A stretch of 64,000 nucleotides of DNA from a virus (IMGVR_UViG_3300050821_017570:96001-160000), one strand, 5' to 3'. Shown: positions 12,637 through 19,325, counted from the stretch's first letter. Numbers and translations: made by a program. Notes: generated from the sequence alone by a model not told the origin.

Positions 12637-12750
12637 GAGGACCTTAGGTCGGGATAGCTACGATAACAGAGTTCCATCAATCTCAATAGGTTGGTTATGT
12701 CCCCCATCCGGTTGTAGAACCGGGGCCATGACCCACTAGTGATTGATACC

Positions 12751-12793
12751 AAAAGAAAAAGATCCCCCGGCGCCTTTCGGCCACCGGGGGATC
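12751..12793 (-). terminator. intrinsic terminator closing the ubiquitin-like operon
   Basis: GATCCCCCGG-TGGCCGAAAGGCG-CCGGGGGATC stem followed by TTTTTCTTTT. Confidence 0.85.
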
Positions 12794-12846
12794 TTCCTCA
12801 CCCACAACCGGCATTCCGCCGGAGTGAGTTCATCTGATGCTGAAAC

Positions 12847-12866: not shown

Positions 12867-13487
12867 TCACTTGTTGCCCTTGATGGGCTCGGTGAGGAGG
12901 ACGAGATCGCCATCCTGGACTTCGGTATCCAGGGTGGCGGGATCGCCGCCGATCTTCAGATCGTAGTTGCCCTTCACGAGACCCGCGTGGCGGAGAACGT
13001 CCGCGACGGTGTCACCGTGGTCGACAGCCACCGGGGTCAGGCGACCCGGGAACTTGCCGACCTGAACGGAGATCTGGTTGCCCTTGATGGGCTCGGTCAG
13101 CAGAACCAGGTCACCATCCTGAACCTCGGTCTCCAGAGTCGCGGGATCGCCGCCGATCTTGAGATCGTAGTTGCCCTTCACGAGACCCGCATGCCGCAGC
13201 ACGTCGGCCACGGTATCGCCGTGATCGACCGCGACAGGCGTCAGACGACCAGGGAACTTGCCGACCTGGACGCTGATCTGGTTGCCCTTGATGGGCTCGG
13301 TGAGGAGGACGAGATCGCCGTCGAAGACCTCGGTGTCGAGGTTGGCGCTCTCGCCACCGATCTTGAGGTCGTAGTTGCCCTTCACGAGACCCGCGTGGCG
13401 GAGCGCATCCGCGACGGTCGAGCCTGCATCGCAGGTGATGGGGGTGAGACGACCGGGGAACTTGCCAACCTGAACGGAGATAGCCAT
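12867..13487 (-). CDS. tri-ubiquitin-like (beta-grasp) polyprotein precursor: 3 x 68-aa units ending IKG, plus an NK cap
   Basis: Three tandem units ISVQVGKFPGRL...TVAD.LRHAG...YDLKIGG...L.TEV.DGDLVLLTEPIKG (ThiS/MoaD/Ub-like pattern); real start ATG 13487 with AAGGAAG SD; next to E1, JAB and E2 genes. Confidence 0.85.
   Translation of the reverse strand: MAISVQVGKFPGRLTPITCDAGSTVADALRHAGLVKGNYDLKIGGESANLDTEVFDGDLVLLTEPIKGNQISVQVGKFPGRLTPVAVDHGDTVADVLRHAGLVKGNYDLKIGGDPATLETEVQDGDLVLLTEPIKGNQISVQVGKFPGRLTPVAVDHGDTVADVLRHAGLVKGNYDLKIGGDPATLDTEVQDGDLVLLTEPIKGNK
12870..13481 (-). repeat. three tandem 204-nt repeats encoding the Ubl units
   Basis: Period 204 nt; units differ mostly at synonymous positions. 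Confidence 0.95.
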
Positions 13488-13560
13488 GTGAAACTTCCTT
13501 GAGAGAGGTGGGTTAGAGGCCCACCTTTGTAACAAACAACATTTTCAGTACAAGCGCAAA

Positions 13561-14274
13561 CTAACCGGCAGCCTTCTTGAGGAAGGTCCGGGGCAACAGG
13601 ACAGTAAAGGCGGGGCTCATAGCGACAAGGACGTCCCACTGTGGGGCTTCCTTCCCTTCCTTACCCTGTTTGTGGGCCCACCACTGGATCAGCGTCCACG
13701 TGGCGTATCCTGCGAGAATCTCGGCAGTCGGACCTACCGTGATCTGCGTCCCACAGGCGCTTACCGTCGCCTGCTCATCCCCATACAGATACCCTTCCCA
13801 GAACTTGACCTGTTCGGGGCTATTGGGATCGATCGCAAAGACACGCGCCTGGTCAGCCCCCATGCGGGTCTCGATCATCAGCTTCAAGTAGGGATGGTAC
13901 TTGATACTGGCGTCCCAAATCTCCTTCCGACTCTTCATCGTGTCGGTCAGGAGGAAAACGAACGATCCGAGATCCTGCTGGCCCTCGTAGGCCTCATTGT
14001 GCGCAGTGATCTCGATCTCGGTCTGGCGCCGGATCATCTCCTTCAACGCCTCGACCTTCGGCTTTCCAATGTCATCGATGCCAAACGCCTGATTTGGCAC
14101 ATTGTGGCCTTCGATCTTGTCGAAGTCCCAACAGTGAAGATTCTTGATGCCGAGCTTGGCCAGCGAAATGGCCACTCGGGAACCGGTTGCACCGCATCCG
14201 ATGATGTCGACCCGCTGCTCGCCAAAAGCATACGGGTCGAACACCTCCAGATGCCGCATCGTATTAAGCGGCAT
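13561..14274 (-). CDS. E1-like (ThiF/MoeB family) adenylating enzyme
   Basis: IIGCGATGS nucleotide loop, DFDKIEGHNVPNQ, GKPKV, TD...R, ETRMG; candidate catalytic Cys174 in SACG; no CxxC Zn pairs. Confidence 0.92.
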   Translation of the reverse strand: MPLNTMRHLEVFDPYAFGEQRVDIIGCGATGSRVAISLAKLGIKNLHCWDFDKIEGHNVPNQAFGIDDIGKPKVEALKEMIRRQTEIEITAHNEAYEGQQDLGSFVFLLTDTMKSRKEIWDASIKYHPYLKLMIETRMGADQARVFAIDPNSPEQVKFWEGYLYGDEQATVSACGTQITVGPTAEILAGYATWTLIQWWAHKQGKEGKEAPQWDVLVAMSPAFTVLLPRTFLKKAAG

Positions 14275-14287
14275 ACCTATCCTGGCT

Positions 14288-15349
14288 CTACGGGCCGCGC
14301 GGGGCCTGTGGGTCTGGCTTCACTTGAGTCGACGGAGCTTGCTCCGCCCCTTCAAGAATCTCCGCAACGGCAGGGTAAGTGTCCTTTGCGTTGAATCGTG
14401 AGGAGACTGAGGTTTCGGCAGGAGGGCTGTGGTGCGGGGCTCCGCAAAAGTGCTCCTCGTGATCGAGGACCTCCTGACCCGATGGTGCCACCGGAGTCGA
14501 AGAGGTTGTGCCTTCCAGCTCGATCACCGCAACCGTGTCGCCCAGCGACGGCAGATGGGTGAACGGCACCATCTTGGCACGCACGCCACAGCCCTTCTTC
14601 TTGTACGGGCAGGTCAGCATGCTGAACATCTGGCGACGCTCAACCGTGACCTCCTGCCGACAAGCCGAACACCAAGCCGGCACTTCCTGTTCGTCCCAAG
14701 GCTTATACGGACGATATCCCTTGAAGTCGTCACCATCGCTCCAGCTGGTACGTCTCCAGTCCTGGCTCGCACCGCTCCAGGTGAGAGGCTTGACCTTGAG
14801 GTCAAACTCCGCCTGAAGGGCCGCCCGACGCGGCGAATCCGACGATGCCTCGACCGCCCACTCGATGTCGAGAACCGCATAATGCTTGTCGAAGTCGAAC
14901 AGATCGAGCTTCAACTCACCACGCTTGTTGCCGATCGCTCGGATCAGGAACGGAGCCTCGTTGCGCTTCCAGAGCCCGACCTGAGTGTCGTCCTGACCAG
15001 ACGGTTCCACCCCCATCGTGTGATGGGAATGGAACCAGTAGTAGAGACGATTCACGTCGGCCTTGATGACCGGATTGGCATTCCGGCCCAGCTCGACCGC
15101 GAGCTTACCCAGCCCCTCGGTCGAGATCTCGTTGGTACCGGCGTTGACCTGCTGGTCGATCAGATAGACCCGCTGGACCACAAGGGTCCCATCGGCCAGC
15201 TTCTCCACCGCACCGAGCATCCCCACCTCAACGGTGGCGATGTCGGTGATGATGGCCTGATCCTCAAGAGCCTGGCGGCTGATGATGATCTTGGGAACCT
15301 GAGCCTGAATGTCATTCTTGAACTTGTGCCCAACAAACGTCATGATCAA
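14288..15349 (-). CDS. JAB/MPN (JAMM) metalloprotease, deubiquitinase-like, with C-terminal Cys cluster
   Basis: E41...H107-S-H109-x7-S117-x2-D120, an exact JAMM signature; CSAC...CPYKKKGC downstream. Confidence 0.9.
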   Translation of the reverse strand: MIMTFVGHKFKNDIQAQVPKIIISRQALEDQAIITDIATVEVGMLGAVEKLADGTLVVQRVYLIDQQVNAGTNEISTEGLGKLAVELGRNANPVIKADVNRLYYWFHSHHTMGVEPSGQDDTQVGLWKRNEAPFLIRAIGNKRGELKLDLFDFDKHYAVLDIEWAVEASSDSPRRAALQAEFDLKVKPLTWSGASQDWRRTSWSDGDDFKGYRPYKPWDEQEVPAWCSACRQEVTVERRQMFSMLTCPYKKKGCGVRAKMVPFTHLPSLGDTVAVIELEGTTSSTPVAPSGQEVLDHEEHFCGAPHHSPPAETSVSSRFNAKDTYPAVAEILEGAEQAPSTQVKPDPQAPRGP

Positions 15350-17043
15350 TCCTTCTTCGCACCAGCGGCCTTCGCCGCCGGCTTGGCCATCTCGGCCAGC
15401 TCAGGGTATTCGGCCAGCTCGGCAGCATAGCGAGCCTTCTTCTCGATCGCCAGGGCAGCGCGCTGCGCCTTGACGACCTCCGGATCGGCCACCGGCCACC
15501 GGTTCACCTTGCTACCCGCGCTGTCGTCCACATTGACCGACTGCAGGTACAGGATGACGGCCACGATGGCCGCCTTGTACTCGAACGACGCCACCAGCTC
15601 GGTGACGGTCGACCCGATGTTGCCCCAGCAGGGCTTACCGCTGGAGAACACGTGCGGAGCCTGCATGCCCGTCTCCTGGGCATCGACGGTCTTGCCGATC
15701 GCGAACATCTTCACATCACCATTGGTGGTGTTGATGTTGATGCGCATGCACCCCACGGCATGGAGCTTGTTGACCCGAGGATCCGTCACATAGAGCGGAT
15801 CGGTCTCGACGGTCAGCACGTCGCCCTTGAAGGTGACGTTCGCCACATGCGCCAGCTCACGCAGAGCAACGAACTCCTTGGTCAGCTTGGCGGTCTGCTG
15901 ATCGGTCGTCAGGCCACGGGCCTCGGCGATCGCCTGTAGATGCTCGATATTGCGGGTCGACTCGATGATCTGACGCTTCGCCGCTGCGAGCGCCTCCTCT
16001 TCCTTCTTGACGTTCTCGACCGCGTTCTTGCGCTCGATCTCGAATCGCTTCATCGACACCGCGACATACTTCTCGCAGAGGTCGCGATAGTTGGGCGGGC
16101 GATACCCACGCGTCATGATCTTGACCGCTTCGGTCAGATAGGTCTTGAGCAGCGTGAGGGTCTTCCCATCGTTCACCGCATGGACGGCATCGAAGGTGAT
16201 GTAGAGGTTGTTGTCGTTGAAATAGCCAACCTCATCACCCTCGGCCGACATGATCTTGCCACCCTGCTCCCACGGCACGAAGTGGCCGGGCGGACGCTCG
16301 GTAACCTGATGCCCCCACATGGTCTCGGGCACCACGAAACGGGAATCCGGGCCACCCGCATCGGGCGCCGACCAGATGAACACGTTGAACGTGTCACCGG
16401 CGATCGGAGCCTGCGCGCGGCCGTGCGGGATGTAGACGTCGATGTTGCGCTTCACGTAAGCGCCCAGGATGTCCTTGAACGCCTTCAGAACCGAGTCACG
16501 GAAGCCCGCATCGGTTGCGATCGTATAGTCGGTCCAACCCTTCGGGGTCACGACGACGGCCGAAGCCTCCATCGTGCCGATCCGCACCTTGTGGGCGGTC
16601 GCCGGCTTGGCCGGAGCGGCCGTGGCAGCCGTGGCAGCCACGGCGGGAGCCGCTGCCGCAGGAGCAGCCGCCTGAGGTGCCGCAGGGGCGGCCTCAGGAG
16701 CTGCGGGCGCGGGAGCCGCTGGGGCAGCCGGGGCCGGAGCGGCACCGGCCGTGATGGCGGTCAGCTCGATCGCATTGATCGAACTGTGCTGCTGGGCACC
16801 GATGACCCAGCCGGCGCGAGCCAGACGGTCGAGACCTTCACGCGTCACGAGGAAGCACTGCTGACCGTCAACGTTCATGCCGTTGGGGGTCATGTTGTAG
16901 GCACCGACGTTGGCCAGGTCTTGCGCCGACACCACATCGGTCCGAATGGCGAAACTGACATCGACGACCGTCGGAACCGCCTCAGGAGTGACTCCCTCGG
17001 GGATCGTGACGGTGGCCGGACGAGGACGAGAAGTACGAGCCAT
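15346..17043 (-). CDS. multidomain protein with C-terminal prokaryotic E2 (Ub-conjugating)-like domain
   Basis: APHVFSSGKPCWGN matches the prokaryotic E2 (H)PH-x-Cys-x-G pattern; preceded by coiled coil and A/P linker; start ATG 17043 has AAGGA SD. Confidence 0.78.
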   Translation of the reverse strand: MARTSRPRPATVTIPEGVTPEAVPTVVDVSFAIRTDVVSAQDLANVGAYNMTPNGMNVDGQQCFLVTREGLDRLARAGWVIGAQQHSSINAIELTAITAGAAPAPAAPAAPAPAAPEAAPAAPQAAAPAAAAPAVAATAATAAPAKPATAHKVRIGTMEASAVVVTPKGWTDYTIATDAGFRDSVLKAFKDILGAYVKRNIDVYIPHGRAQAPIAGDTFNVFIWSAPDAGGPDSRFVVPETMWGHQVTERPPGHFVPWEQGGKIMSAEGDEVGYFNDNNLYITFDAVHAVNDGKTLTLLKTYLTEAVKIMTRGYRPPNYRDLCEKYVAVSMKRFEIERKNAVENVKKEEEALAAAKRQIIESTRNIEHLQAIAEARGLTTDQQTAKLTKEFVALRELAHVANVTFKGDVLTVETDPLYVTDPRVNKLHAVGCMRININTTNGDVKMFAIGKTVDAQETGMQAPHVFSSGKPCWGNIGSTVTELVASFEYKAAIVAVILYLQSVNVDDSAGSKVNRWPVADPEVVKAQRAALAIEKKARYAAELAEYPELAEMAKPAAKAAGAKKD

Positions 17044-17066
17044 TTGTATCCTTTGAAACGACCAAG

Positions 17067-19325
17067 TCACGCCTCACCGACGTGAATCACATGGTCAAGA
17101 AAACCTTTGAGTGACGCATCATGTGTGACAATCAGAATCTGTCTGCCCTTGGCTTGCGAAATCTCGCGTAACCTCAGGAGCAGGTTCTGAAGATGGACGA
17201 TGTTTGCCTCGTCCAGATAAGCCGACGGTTCATCAAGAACCAGCAGGCCCATGTTCCGGGCAAACGTATCGGCCATCGCTAGCCTGAACGCAACCGACGC
17301 AATGATCTTCTCACCTCCGGATAGGCGAGATGCGTCTACCTGAACACCCTTCTTCTCTCCACTGATGAAGAGAATACGGAACGCCATATCGGCGTCTAAC
17401 CACATTCGAAACGGAGATTCGAGAAGTAGCAAATACTGCTCGATATGGTTGTTGAGAATCGCAGAGTATTCACGCATCGCCAGGGCTGGATACCCAGATA
17501 CATGCATAGCCTCTCTGACCTGTCGAACGACTGCGACCCACGCGTTATCGTCAGCCTCACGCTGAGACTGCTCAAGTAGGCGTCGCGCCTCACCTTCACG
17601 CTGTGTCGCTAGCCCGCTGGCGACACCAACTTTCAACGTCAGTTCCTGTAATGCGCGGCTGAGACCAGGATAAGCTTCCATCTGGCGCTTAGCCTCGGTC
17701 ACTTCCTCCATAGTTGGAATGTTGTCAATCTGACCTAGCTGATCGAGATACTCCTTTGCCTTACAAGCCGTCGCAGCCGCCTGGGTGATCCGCGTGACCA
17801 ACCCAGCGTAGCGCTCATTCGCTACCGCGACAGCCGTTTGAAGCGTTTGGAACTCCGTGACGATCGCTCGTAACTGAGTCATCAGGACGCTATCCGCCGG
17901 CTCGGTAGGCAGGCCTCGCATCTGACTGGTAATCGATTCGACATCACGACTCAGCAACTGGTGGGCGCGAGCCAGCTCGGTCAGTCGGGTCAACTCGGCC
18001 GTCTGGAGTCGCAGGTTCGTCTTGAGAACGTCGGCTTCACCTTTCAGCAACTTGCTCGTAATCTGATCGATCTGATTCAACTGGCCCTGTACGGTAGCAC
18101 GCTGCTCTTGCAGGACTGCTAATTCGGACTTCTTCCGCTGAACCATCTCTGGCCCGCCATGAACGGTCTGACCACACGTCGGACAGACCCCACTTCCAAG
18201 GTGCTGACACTCACTCGACAGTTGGCGCTGGCTATCCGATAGCCGTGCCAGCTCAACCTCCAGGGCTTCCTGACCTGGCATCTTCGGCCGCGCGGCTGGC
18301 GTCTTAACCATCCATTCGAGTGACTCCAACCGAGCGGTGTCGGCCTTGATCTGATCCGCTAGCGCGGTTTGATCTGCCTGGGAAAATGGTGCCAGCTGGG
18401 TCTTCTGAAGCTCAGCAAGCCGCTGACTCAGCTCAACCCATCGTTCCCATTGTGTGTGAGCCTTCTCCAGCGATTTGATCTGTTCGACCGCACTAATCGC
18501 AAGAGCCTGGCTAGCGTCACGCTGTGCTTGTTTGGCCACCAACGCTTGGTGGGCCTCATCTGCTTCCAGCCGAGCAGCCTCACACTCTTGCGTCATCCGC
18601 TCGTACTGCTGGGTCGCCTGGGCAACCGCAGCCGTATGTCGGATCGCTTCACTGGCCCGCTGAAGCGTCTGCTGGTGAACCGCCAGTCCCTCTAACGCGA
18701 CTTGCGTCCGTTGAAGGTCGGCTTCTGCCGCTACCAGTTCGGCTCTCGCCTTGGTGGTTGCAGCAACCGCCTCGGCCAGAATGTCTGTCAGGTTAGGCGT
18801 GACCTGGTAGAGATTCTGCTCAACCGTCAGGAGTCGATAGACCTGCTCGGTTCGATCGAGCCCAAAGCTAGCCTGGAACTCCTTGAGCCGGCTGGTTGGG
18901 CTGGCACACAAGATGGCCTCAATCTTGGTCTGCTGGATGAAAACATTGTCCAACAGGAGATCGATCGGAGCGCCAAACATGTCCTGGATAAACAGATCCA
19001 GTTCACCGGCCTTGTTGATACGGGTGCCTGGTCCGGTCAGAATCGACTTGGCCGGCAGATCACGATAGATGTGCCGGACGATCTGATACTCGGTACCGGC
19101 TTGATCGAACAGACCTCTGACCTCTGCGTCGGCCTGACCGTCGCGGATGTTGTCCTTGTTGTTGCCGCTGTTGACGCTTCGACCCGTGAACAACAGTCGG
19201 ATGGCGTCGCAAAGATTCGACTTGCCACTTCCGTTGGCACCCACGATACCGTTCAGGCCAGGTCGAAACTCGACCTCCAGACTTCGATGTTGGCAATAGT
19301 TCGTAAGCAGGAGTGATTTTAGCAC
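17067..19325 (-). CDS. sbcC: SbcC/Rad50 (gp46-like) SMC ATPase
   Basis: GANGSGKS Walker A, CPTCGQ zinc hook, long coiled coils, LSGGEK signature, LLVLDEP, IVTH. Confidence 0.95.
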   Translation of the reverse strand: MLKSLLLTNYCQHRSLEVEFRPGLNGIVGANGSGKSNLCDAIRLLFTGRSVNSGNNKDNIRDGQADAEVRGLFDQAGTEYQIVRHIYRDLPAKSILTGPGTRINKAGELDLFIQDMFGAPIDLLLDNVFIQQTKIEAILCASPTSRLKEFQASFGLDRTEQVYRLLTVEQNLYQVTPNLTDILAEAVAATTKARAELVAAEADLQRTQVALEGLAVHQQTLQRASEAIRHTAAVAQATQQYERMTQECEAARLEADEAHQALVAKQAQRDASQALAISAVEQIKSLEKAHTQWERWVELSQRLAELQKTQLAPFSQADQTALADQIKADTARLESLEWMVKTPAARPKMPGQEALEVELARLSDSQRQLSSECQHLGSGVCPTCGQTVHGGPEMVQRKKSELAVLQEQRATVQGQLNQIDQITSKLLKGEADVLKTNLRLQTAELTRLTELARAHQLLSRDVESITSQMRGLPTEPADSVLMTQLRAIVTEFQTLQTAVAVANERYAGLVTRITQAAATACKAKEYLDQLGQIDNIPTMEEVTEAKRQMEAYPGLSRALQELTLKVGVASGLATQREGEARRLLEQSQREADDNAWVAVVRQVREAMHVSGYPALAMREYSAILNNHIEQYLLLLESPFRMWLDADMAFRILFISGEKKGVQVDASRLSGGEKIIASVAFRLAMADTFARNMGLLVLDEPSAYLDEANIVHLQNLLLRLREISQAKGRQILIVTHDASLKGFLDHVIHVGEA

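Follow-up and report, generated by a model that had tools for sequence, protein, structure and literature searches.

A candidate ubiquitin-like protein conjugation pathway encoded in the replication module of an uncultured soil phage

A 64,000-nucleotide stretch of an uncultured soil phage (IMGVR_UViG_3300050821_017570:96001-160000, hereafter the window, with positions counted from its first letter) carries four consecutive minus-strand genes, designated here A, B, C and D. The evidence supports their assignment as a ubiquitin-style kit composed of a triple-repeat tag (D), an activating enzyme (C), a trimming protease (B) and a probable transfer enzyme (A). With a probability of roughly 0.7, we interpret the cassette as a self-contained phage pathway for ubiquitin-like (Ubl) protein conjugation that would operate in the replication phase, involving tag maturation by a JAB protease, adenylation by an E1 enzyme, transfer via Cys481 of A, tagging without an E3, and reversal by the same JAB protease. 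This interpretation draws on the identities of the E1, JAB and Ubl proteins, a UBC-like predicted fold with invariant His and Cys residues in A, purifying selection on the tag, and co-occurrence of the four genes. To date, the only E1/E2/JAB/Ubl pathways characterized in prokaryotes are bacterial anti-phage defenses, namely Bil, type II CBASS and Bub. The window presents the reverse case, a complete kit on a virus, with E2 and JAB parts from families missed by Pfam, PHROGs, NCBIfam and PADLOC. While the roles of the parts are already known from Bil and related systems, what our analysis supports as new is a Ubl conjugation module borne by phages that combines a minimal E1 with an E2-like family not recognized before.

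Conservation of the four-gene unit

An earlier note on this DNA had described an E2-JAB-E1-poly-Ubl operon inside a phage replication block. The four open reading frames (ORFs) are indeed present there in consecutive order, and every motif claimed for them was found: PHVFSSGKPCWGN in A, E41...H107-S-H109-x7-S117-x2-D120 in B, and both GCGATG and SAC174G in C. To place the cassette among other phages, a search seeded with the E1 recovered 300 relatives in IMG/VR, and the best 80 of these 300 loci were scanned with our own family hidden Markov models (HMMs). All four families lie on one strand in 69 of the 80 loci and three families in a further 6; the remaining loci contain one or two families, several of them at a contig end. 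Gene orders are permuted, with A-B-C-D, D-A-B-C, D-C-B-A, and B-C-D followed by a giant A (1,149-1,320 aa) all represented. Because membership is constant while gene order shuffles, these loci provide strong evidence for a four-part functional unit.

Tag precursor and protease

Gene D (12867-13487, minus strand, in an ORF open to 13535) encodes three ThiS-like units of 68 residues, located at 13284-13487 (unit 1), 13080-13283 (unit 2) and 12876-13079 (unit 3). Each unit ends in PIKG, and the third is followed by an Asn-Lys cap (12870-12875) and a stop codon. The start codon is most likely ATG 13487, since homologs begin directly at the first beta-strand. Tandem Repeats Finder identified a period of 204 nt with 3.0 copies and 81% DNA matches, while the Pfam ThiS model (PF02597) scored 29.9 bits against a cut-off of 22.5 (E = 8.6e-7) and NCBIfam PRK06437 matched at 6.5e-12, under its equivalog cut-off. 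These family and repeat matches confirm the predicted composition of D as three ThiS-like beta-grasp Ubl units. Between units 2 and 3 there are 30 nucleotide differences, which correspond to 28 synonymous codon changes and 1 non-synonymous change; the protein sequence of the tag units is therefore under strong purifying selection.

The tag does not carry a C-terminal Gly-Gly: the units of D end in Lys-Gly, followed by Asn. Among the first eight tags examined, every unit ends in [I/V]-K-G and then Asn (Ala in one case), with a tail of 1-22 residues on the last unit. A broader survey of 64 distinct tags from the 80 IMG/VR loci revealed that more than half end exactly in K-G-N. Other tags continue for 1-3 residues beyond K-G-N or terminate in [K/R]-G-A; long tails, rarely reaching 22 residues, occur in a few. 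Variable tails behind a conserved Gly are a hallmark of ubiquitin and Ubl precursors that need protease trimming, and this pattern, together with the co-encoded JAB protein, supports cleavage at Gly|Asn. Such cleavage would free three tags from one precursor in the window phage.

The proposed protease, gene B (14288-15349, minus strand), encodes 353 residues with a metalloprotease domain at residues 20-190 (nt 14780-15292). Although no library HMM from Pfam, NCBIfam, PHROG or PADLOC matches B, its full JAMM motif (E41, H107, H109, S117 and D120) is invariant in 12 homologs and retained in 64 of 73 further homologs by strict regular expression. A profile built from the 12 homologs retrieved JAMM deubiquitinases only from the PDB (BRCC36, Rpn11, CSN5, PfJAMM1 and AMSH). 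In an AlphaFold2 (AF2) model, residues 20-190 exceed a predicted local distance difference test (pLDDT) score of 90, and Foldseek matched this model to Rpn11 (7.8e-8) and PfJAMM1 (1.3e-7) with a probability of 1.0, among 201 PDB matches below 1e-3. Overall, motif and predicted MPN fold confirm B as a JAB/JAMM/MPN+ metalloprotease, as the exact E...HSH-x7-S-x2-D motif had indicated.

The C-terminal 160 residues of B are predicted to be disordered. This half contains a C-x2-C...C-P-x6-C arrangement at residues ~222-250 (window 14600-14690), a possible zinc ribbon in a low-confidence part of the model, and one homolog (locus L002) also possesses a CxxC at this place.

E1 enzyme and the reactive end of the tag

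Gene C (13561-14274, minus strand) encodes a 237-residue ThiF/MoeB-type protein with GxGxxG at residues 26-31 and Cys174 encoded at 13753-13755. The Pfam ThiF model (PF00899) scored 74.3 bits against a gathering cut-off of 28.1 (E = 1.1e-20), ThiF models rank first in the NCBIfam scan, and a phmmer search of the PDB matched C to MccB, MoeB, PaaA, ThiF and NAE1 (the NEDD8 E1). Across 12 homologs, GxGxxG, D50, K73, D111 and Cys174 (S-x-C-G, in the crossover loop) are invariant, and a strict regular expression for the E1 catalytic motif is retained in 64 of 68 cases. In the phmmer alignment Cys174 is offset by ~10 residues from E. coli ThiF numbering and hence falls near ThiF Cys184. The enzyme is minimal, consisting of a single adenylation domain without a second adenylation domain, a UFD or CxxC zinc pairs; the last of these absences was already apparent to the earlier note. 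By family match and motif, C is placed in the ThiF/MoeB/E1 adenylation superfamily, with Cys174 as the candidate catalytic residue.

The ranking of PDB matches bears on which residue of the tag would react. MccB is the best sequence match of C (1.5e-8), ahead of MoeB and ThiF, and MccB chemistry acts on a C-terminal Asn. Considering that more than half of the 64 tags end in K-G-N and that a few keep Asn without Gly (K-S-N, K-A-N), the reactive end could be the C-terminal Asn itself. The ThiF-like enzyme would then act as MccB or PaaA, with adenylation and a succinimide leading to a phosphoramidate or another non-isopeptide product, and the JAB protein would cut after Asn. We regard this chemistry as very improbable. 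The match to MccB spans only the Rossmann segment at residues 20-90, the MccB peptide-clamp domain is absent, and NCBIfam puts ThiF models first. Moreover, Asn is missing from about eight tags with a [KR]-G-A end and from one with K-G-A-C, and MccB-type chemistry leaves no role for an E2-like partner.

E2-like protein

Gene A (15346-17070, minus strand) encodes 574 residues from GTG 17070 or 565 residues from ATG 17043, the latter being the version in the protein database. The protein comprises an N-terminal domain (residues 1-95), an Ala/Pro-rich linker (~100-170), an alpha/beta middle domain (185-325), a 60-residue helix (328-385) and a C-terminal UBC-like domain (388-530). The E2-like (predicted UBC-fold) domain is encoded at 15481-15909, with the codon for His473 at 15652-15654 and that for the candidate catalytic Cys481 at 15628-15630.

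Sequence comparison revealed a family of its own. A had no match in Pfam, NCBIfam, PHROG or PADLOC, and none of 61 sampled members of the A family contains a Pfam domain at E <= 1. Searches of the PDB with the sequence (phmmer) and with a profile returned low-complexity and coiled-coil noise only, and tblastn of A against 50,697 phage records gave zero matches. A profile of residues 185-545, searched against 1.84 billion proteins, matched 2,719 representative clusters at E < 1e-3 (410 even below 1e-30), which places A in a large, unannotated protein family. P472, H473, C481, G483, W525 and P526 are invariant in the 61-member alignment, and the P-H-x7-C-x-G pattern is retained in 76 of 89 further homologs by strict regular expression. 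At the nucleotide level, blastn of the cassette against phages detected Ala/Pro-linker noise only; the linker (window 16560-16770) is the sole part of the cassette with blastn matches, to tape-measure and 'tegument' low-complexity sequences.

Structure prediction provided the link to E2 enzymes. The AF2 model of A (pLDDT 94.6) shows the middle domain and long helix, then a helix, five strands, the P-H...C loop and more helices. His473 and Cys481 are located where the last strand leads through a loop into the following helix, the loop in which E2s carry HPN...Cys. Using Foldseek, the best PDB matches of the C-terminal ~145 residues were all eukaryotic E2s, with E values of 0.03-0.2 and a probability of up to 0.93. 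VIA, a search independent of Foldseek, ranked UBE2S first (Z 7.2, root-mean-square deviation (rmsd) 4.0, 117 residues), and its other rows outside coiled coils were UbcH10, Ubc13, UbcH5 and UBE2E1 plus two Spc24/25 (RWD-like) domains. In a second VIA analysis, 50 of the 50 top matches were E2 cores (Z 6.6-7.3, rmsd 3.4-4.7, 110-122 of ~150 residues). A structure search of the ESM Atlas yielded a Prok-E2_D cluster at a template modeling (TM) score of 0.53 and a CBASS-E2 cluster at 0.48/0.52, listed beside clusters of the A family itself, most of them viral. For the middle domain, the same atlas offered leads at TM < 0.5 only (glutamine amidotransferase and metallopeptidase-like), which we do not trust.

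The earlier note had called A an E2-like protein. That claim stands insofar as the predicted UBC-like fold, the invariant His and Cys and the co-occurrence with E1, JAB and Ubl genes agree with it; it finds no sequence-family match, and the structural scores reach only Z ~7. Judging from the model, the C-terminal domain of A is probably a genuine, highly diverged UBC-like E2 domain.

Several observations nonetheless count against a complete conjugation pathway. The Pfam collection, which includes UQ_con, Prok-E2 and CBASS-E2 models, yielded nothing at E <= 1 for A, and a Z of ~7 is within the range that the tool warns may reflect a common arrangement. For a direct comparison, a scan of 401 genomes provided 3 Prok-E2_D proteins, one of which was aligned to A by hhalign; the result was not significant (probability 1.8%), and the only aligned segment pairs F-x-D-G-x-a-C-x-G of A with Y-K-D-G-R-I-C-I-G. 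Cys481 is no more than a candidate equivalent of the catalytic Cys of E2s. The E1 carries no UFD-like domain for E2 docking. On the side of the tag, the conserved Asn after Gly is often the very last residue and a few ends (K-S-N, K-A-N) lack Gly, so that Gly is only the probable reactive terminus.

Some of these points would suit a system without an E2, resembling archaeal SAMP/UbaA/JAMM or Thermus TtuB/TtuC, in which the E1 drives conjugation, supplies a thiocarboxylate sulfur carrier, or both, and A forms no thioester, serving instead as a scaffold, a target or an adaptor with a UBC/RWD-like domain that would just bind the tag. The minimal ThiF/MoeB-type E1 lacking an E2-docking domain, the fold-level nature of the E2 evidence with RWD-like Spc24/25 among the matches, and the hhalign result all accord with this alternative. 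We nonetheless judge it unlikely. His and Cys are invariant at the position of the HPN...Cys loop and are kept even in a paralog of A (protein X, described below), and A accompanies E1, JAB and Ubl genes in the 69 four-family loci. The phage genome contains no gene for ThiG, MoaE, a PP-loop ATPase, rhodanese or cysteine desulfurase (IscS), and the tag ends in a single Gly plus cap rather than Gly-Gly.

Distribution across phages

Gene order as found in the window, sbcC-A-B-C-D-helicase-...-DnaB-primase-PolA, is kept in two close relatives (A identity 50% and ~30%) and permuted elsewhere; a distant member with 24% identity in A still has the arrangement A-JAB-ThiF-small ORF. Seeding by motif, using a degenerate DNA pattern for APHVF..G..C.GN, recovered seven IMG/VR contigs and six contigs from metagenome-assembled genomes (MAGs). 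Three of the six MAG contigs have A, B and C, one has A and C without a detected JAB, one has A alone, and one is a chance match. On one MAG contig (L016), an A-family gene was observed with no E1 or JAB within 8 kb.

A second architecture, A-X-B-C-D, contains a protein X that is a paralog of the helix and E2-like domain of A, with His and Cys kept. X is ~350-475 aa, lies between A and the JAB gene, and occurs in many relatives (L007-L010, L013, L014 and many of L059-L103; for example L010:6025-7089). The arrangement points to A-X heterodimers, or to a pair of E2s in each system. In the window phage there is a single copy and no X paralog.

Cultured phages possess part of the module. In Flavobacterium phage FpV4 (gp50-gp51; L021) and crAss-like phage cr111_1 (gp057-gp058; L022), the gene immediately upstream of the ThiF gene, whose product is labeled 'thiamine biosynthesis protein', encodes a JAB-motif protein with an intact HSH-x7-S-x2-D. 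The pair sits in the replication module of FpV4-like phages and cr111_1, between primase, UDG and exonuclease genes, and in Xanthomonas jumbo phages ThiF adjoins topoisomerase genes. Our own HMMs detected ThiF in FpV4, cr111_1 and Xanthomonas PhiXhv-12 and JAB in the first two; the A and Ubl families were not found in these three. Fold matches of A to crAss-like proteins were obtained in BFVD, and they are not tied to the JAB-ThiF loci. Overall, the cassette belongs to a very large module carried by phages, and this module is very common in metagenomic phages.

The neighbors of the 80 loci are mostly replication and nucleotide-metabolism genes, including phrog_62 helicase, phrog_17 DNA polymerase and ribonucleotide reductase, with SbcC in 10 of 80. 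This setting bears on a further alternative, in which the same chemistry would serve counter-defense: the kit would mimic or jam host Ubl immunity (Bil, type II CBASS or Bub) or tag host defense proteins, rather than control replication. Two points favor this role: every E1/E2/JAB system characterized in prokaryotes works in the conflict between phage and host (PMC11601596, PMC10557695, PMC10097602), and the cassette is phage-borne and patchy across lineages. We consider it doubtful, though the strongest of the competing explanations. The cassette is found persistently in replication and nucleotide-metabolism modules and not among small early anti-defense genes, the four-gene set is conserved across very divergent phages, suggesting a core phage function, and the protein families are distinct from those of Bil, CBASS and Bub.

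Proposed mechanism

Returning to conjugation in the replication phase, which we prefer, the proposed steps can be arranged in a simple order. We infer every chemical step from knowledge of the families; the identities of the components, their conservation and their co-occurrence were observed here. The JAB protein would cut the triple precursor after the Gly of each Ile-Lys-Gly|Asn and remove the Asn-Lys cap, affording 68-residue tags with a free C-terminal Gly. The minimal ThiF-type E1 would adenylate this Gly and, by analogy to the chemistry of its family, may form a thioester on Cys174, from which the tag would be handed to Cys481 in the UBC-like domain of A. Without a partner E3, A probably dimerizes via its long helix as an A-A or A-X coiled coil. 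Its N-terminal and middle domains would pick the target, and the tag would be moved to a lysine of a phage or host protein. The JAB protein may also be able to reverse the mark. Genomic position suggests a role in replication control or host takeover.

Comparison with known systems

Definitions of Bil, CBASS, Bub and PRTRC were taken from PMC11601596, PMC10557695 and PMC1779556. Bil (BilABCD, types I and II), an ISG15-like anti-phage system, has the same four roles in separate genes (Ubl, E2, JAB and E1) and no E3. In contrast to Bil (as described in PMC11601596), the phage cassette lacks the defining BilD architecture, its E1 being a 237-aa protein with a single adenylation domain. The phage E2-like protein, at 574 aa, has several domains and a coiled coil and comes from a family without annotation, and the phage tag ends in Gly-Asn. 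Bil is located in bacterial defense islands, whereas the cassette is located in phage replication modules.

Type II CBASS shares a ThiF-type adenylation domain, a UBC-like E2 domain (a predicted fold in A) and a JAB peptidase through Cap2/Cap3, and PADLOC Cap2 'E1-E2' models match the phage E1 at up to 8.6e-16, over the Rossmann segment only; PADLOC gave no match for A, B or D. Cap2, however, is an E1-E2 fusion that uses no free Ubl (the CD-NTase C-terminus is the substrate) and requires a CD-NTase and an effector, none of which occurs in the phage cassette. Bub (6E/DUF6527) likewise combines E1, E2, JAB and Ubls with 1-3 beta-grasp domains (PMC11601596), and triple-Ubl proteins such as mlr6139 were already noted in this class by Iyer et al. 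2006 (PMC1779556). Bub E1 and E2 proteins lack the catalytic Cys and work through oxyesters; Bub genes occur as fusions (Ubl-E2, JAB-E1 or E2-E1) and are accompanied by a DUF6527 serine protease. The phage cassette has invariant Cys residues and four separate genes, and Pfam scans of the proteins found no DUF6527 match. For PRTRC, the NCBIfam model TIGR03736 scores 29.3 bits for the E1 against a cut-off of 144.75, and the other three proteins match no PRTRC model. We therefore rejected membership in Bil, CBASS, Bub and PRTRC, whose defining features the cassette lacks. Family scans of the cassette also agree with the reported absence of ParB, a CD-NTase and a recognizable E3.

Two more distant comparisons are informative. 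Phage lambda gpK (JAB) and gpI (Ubl) provide a phage JAB that cleaves a phage ubiquitin-like domain (PMC1779556; PMC12908700), but they belong to a tail module, work without E1, E2 or conjugation, and have the Ubl as a fusion with a structural protein. ThiF/ThiS, MoeB/MoaD and SAMP/UbaA/HvJAMM1 resemble the cassette in their minimal single-domain E1, crossover-loop Cys and ThiS-like partner, with a JAMM protease also in SAMP. They differ in having tags that end in Gly-Gly and no E2-like partner, and ThiF and MoeB contain zinc CxxC pairs. A full-text literature search returned no paper describing a phage-encoded E1/E2/JAB/Ubl cassette, and a survey of jumbo phages (PMC7824862) does not mention ThiF, E1 or JAB. 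The nearest work is a preprint on E1-like genes in Asgard archaeal viruses.

If the biochemistry holds, the cassette raises the question of what phages tag, whether replication proteins, host factors or defense proteins, and offers for mechanistic study a new minimal E1-E2 pair without UFD or E3. It is also relevant to how ubiquitin-like systems have moved between viruses and cells in evolution, and the JAB and ThiF pairs of cultured crAss-like and Flavobacterium phages, now labeled 'thiamine biosynthesis protein', would need re-annotation. A wider proposal, which we put forward tentatively as possible, is that Ubl tagging is part of the replication program in many lineages of tailed phages, ranging from soil jumbo phages to relatives of crAss-like and Flavobacterium phages. 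This would amount to a viral equivalent of the SUMO/ubiquitin control exerted on the replisome, or of host takeover, with a new coiled-coil E2 family and a Gly-Asn end of possibly unusual terminal chemistry.

Genomic setting and further observations

The source record is a 187,139-bp IMG/VR virus with a CheckV completeness of 95%, and the window also encodes SbcC, two helicases, DnaB, primase, PolA, a UvsX-like recombinase and a large terminase. The phage origin claimed in the earlier note is thus borne out, and a host-chromosome or chimeric source for the contig was rejected on the strength of the record's completeness and this gene content. The note's intergenic distances of 23, -4, 13 and 73 nt were reproduced when the same start codons were used. 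A strong terminator had also been claimed to close the operon. A simple terminator scan identified none on the cassette strand; reading and folding the sequence 3' of D revealed an intrinsic terminator at 12748-12799 (minus strand), in which a ~20-bp GC-rich hairpin (-37.3 kcal/mol, z = -6.4 versus shuffles) is followed by UUUUUCUUUU.

Giant A proteins were observed in L030, L032-L035 and L037 (1,149-1,320 aa) and in L092 (1,623 aa). The strict H..C.G pattern was not found by regular expression in giant A proteins of the order B-C-(D)-A, and Pfam assigned zero domains to four giant A-family proteins (1,149-1,623 aa). In L011 (1797-2777), and also in L025, L027 and L048, the cassette is followed at a distance of a few kb by another JAB-like gene, which is more divergent. 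Tandem A-family genes occur on short metagenome contigs (L005:94-2913 and L004:3-2342). Finally, one IMG/VR contig of 187,794 bp carries two complete or near-complete cassettes adjoining each other at ~82-102 kb (L039 and L042), with A675-B218-C227-D141 followed by A532-B-C219.

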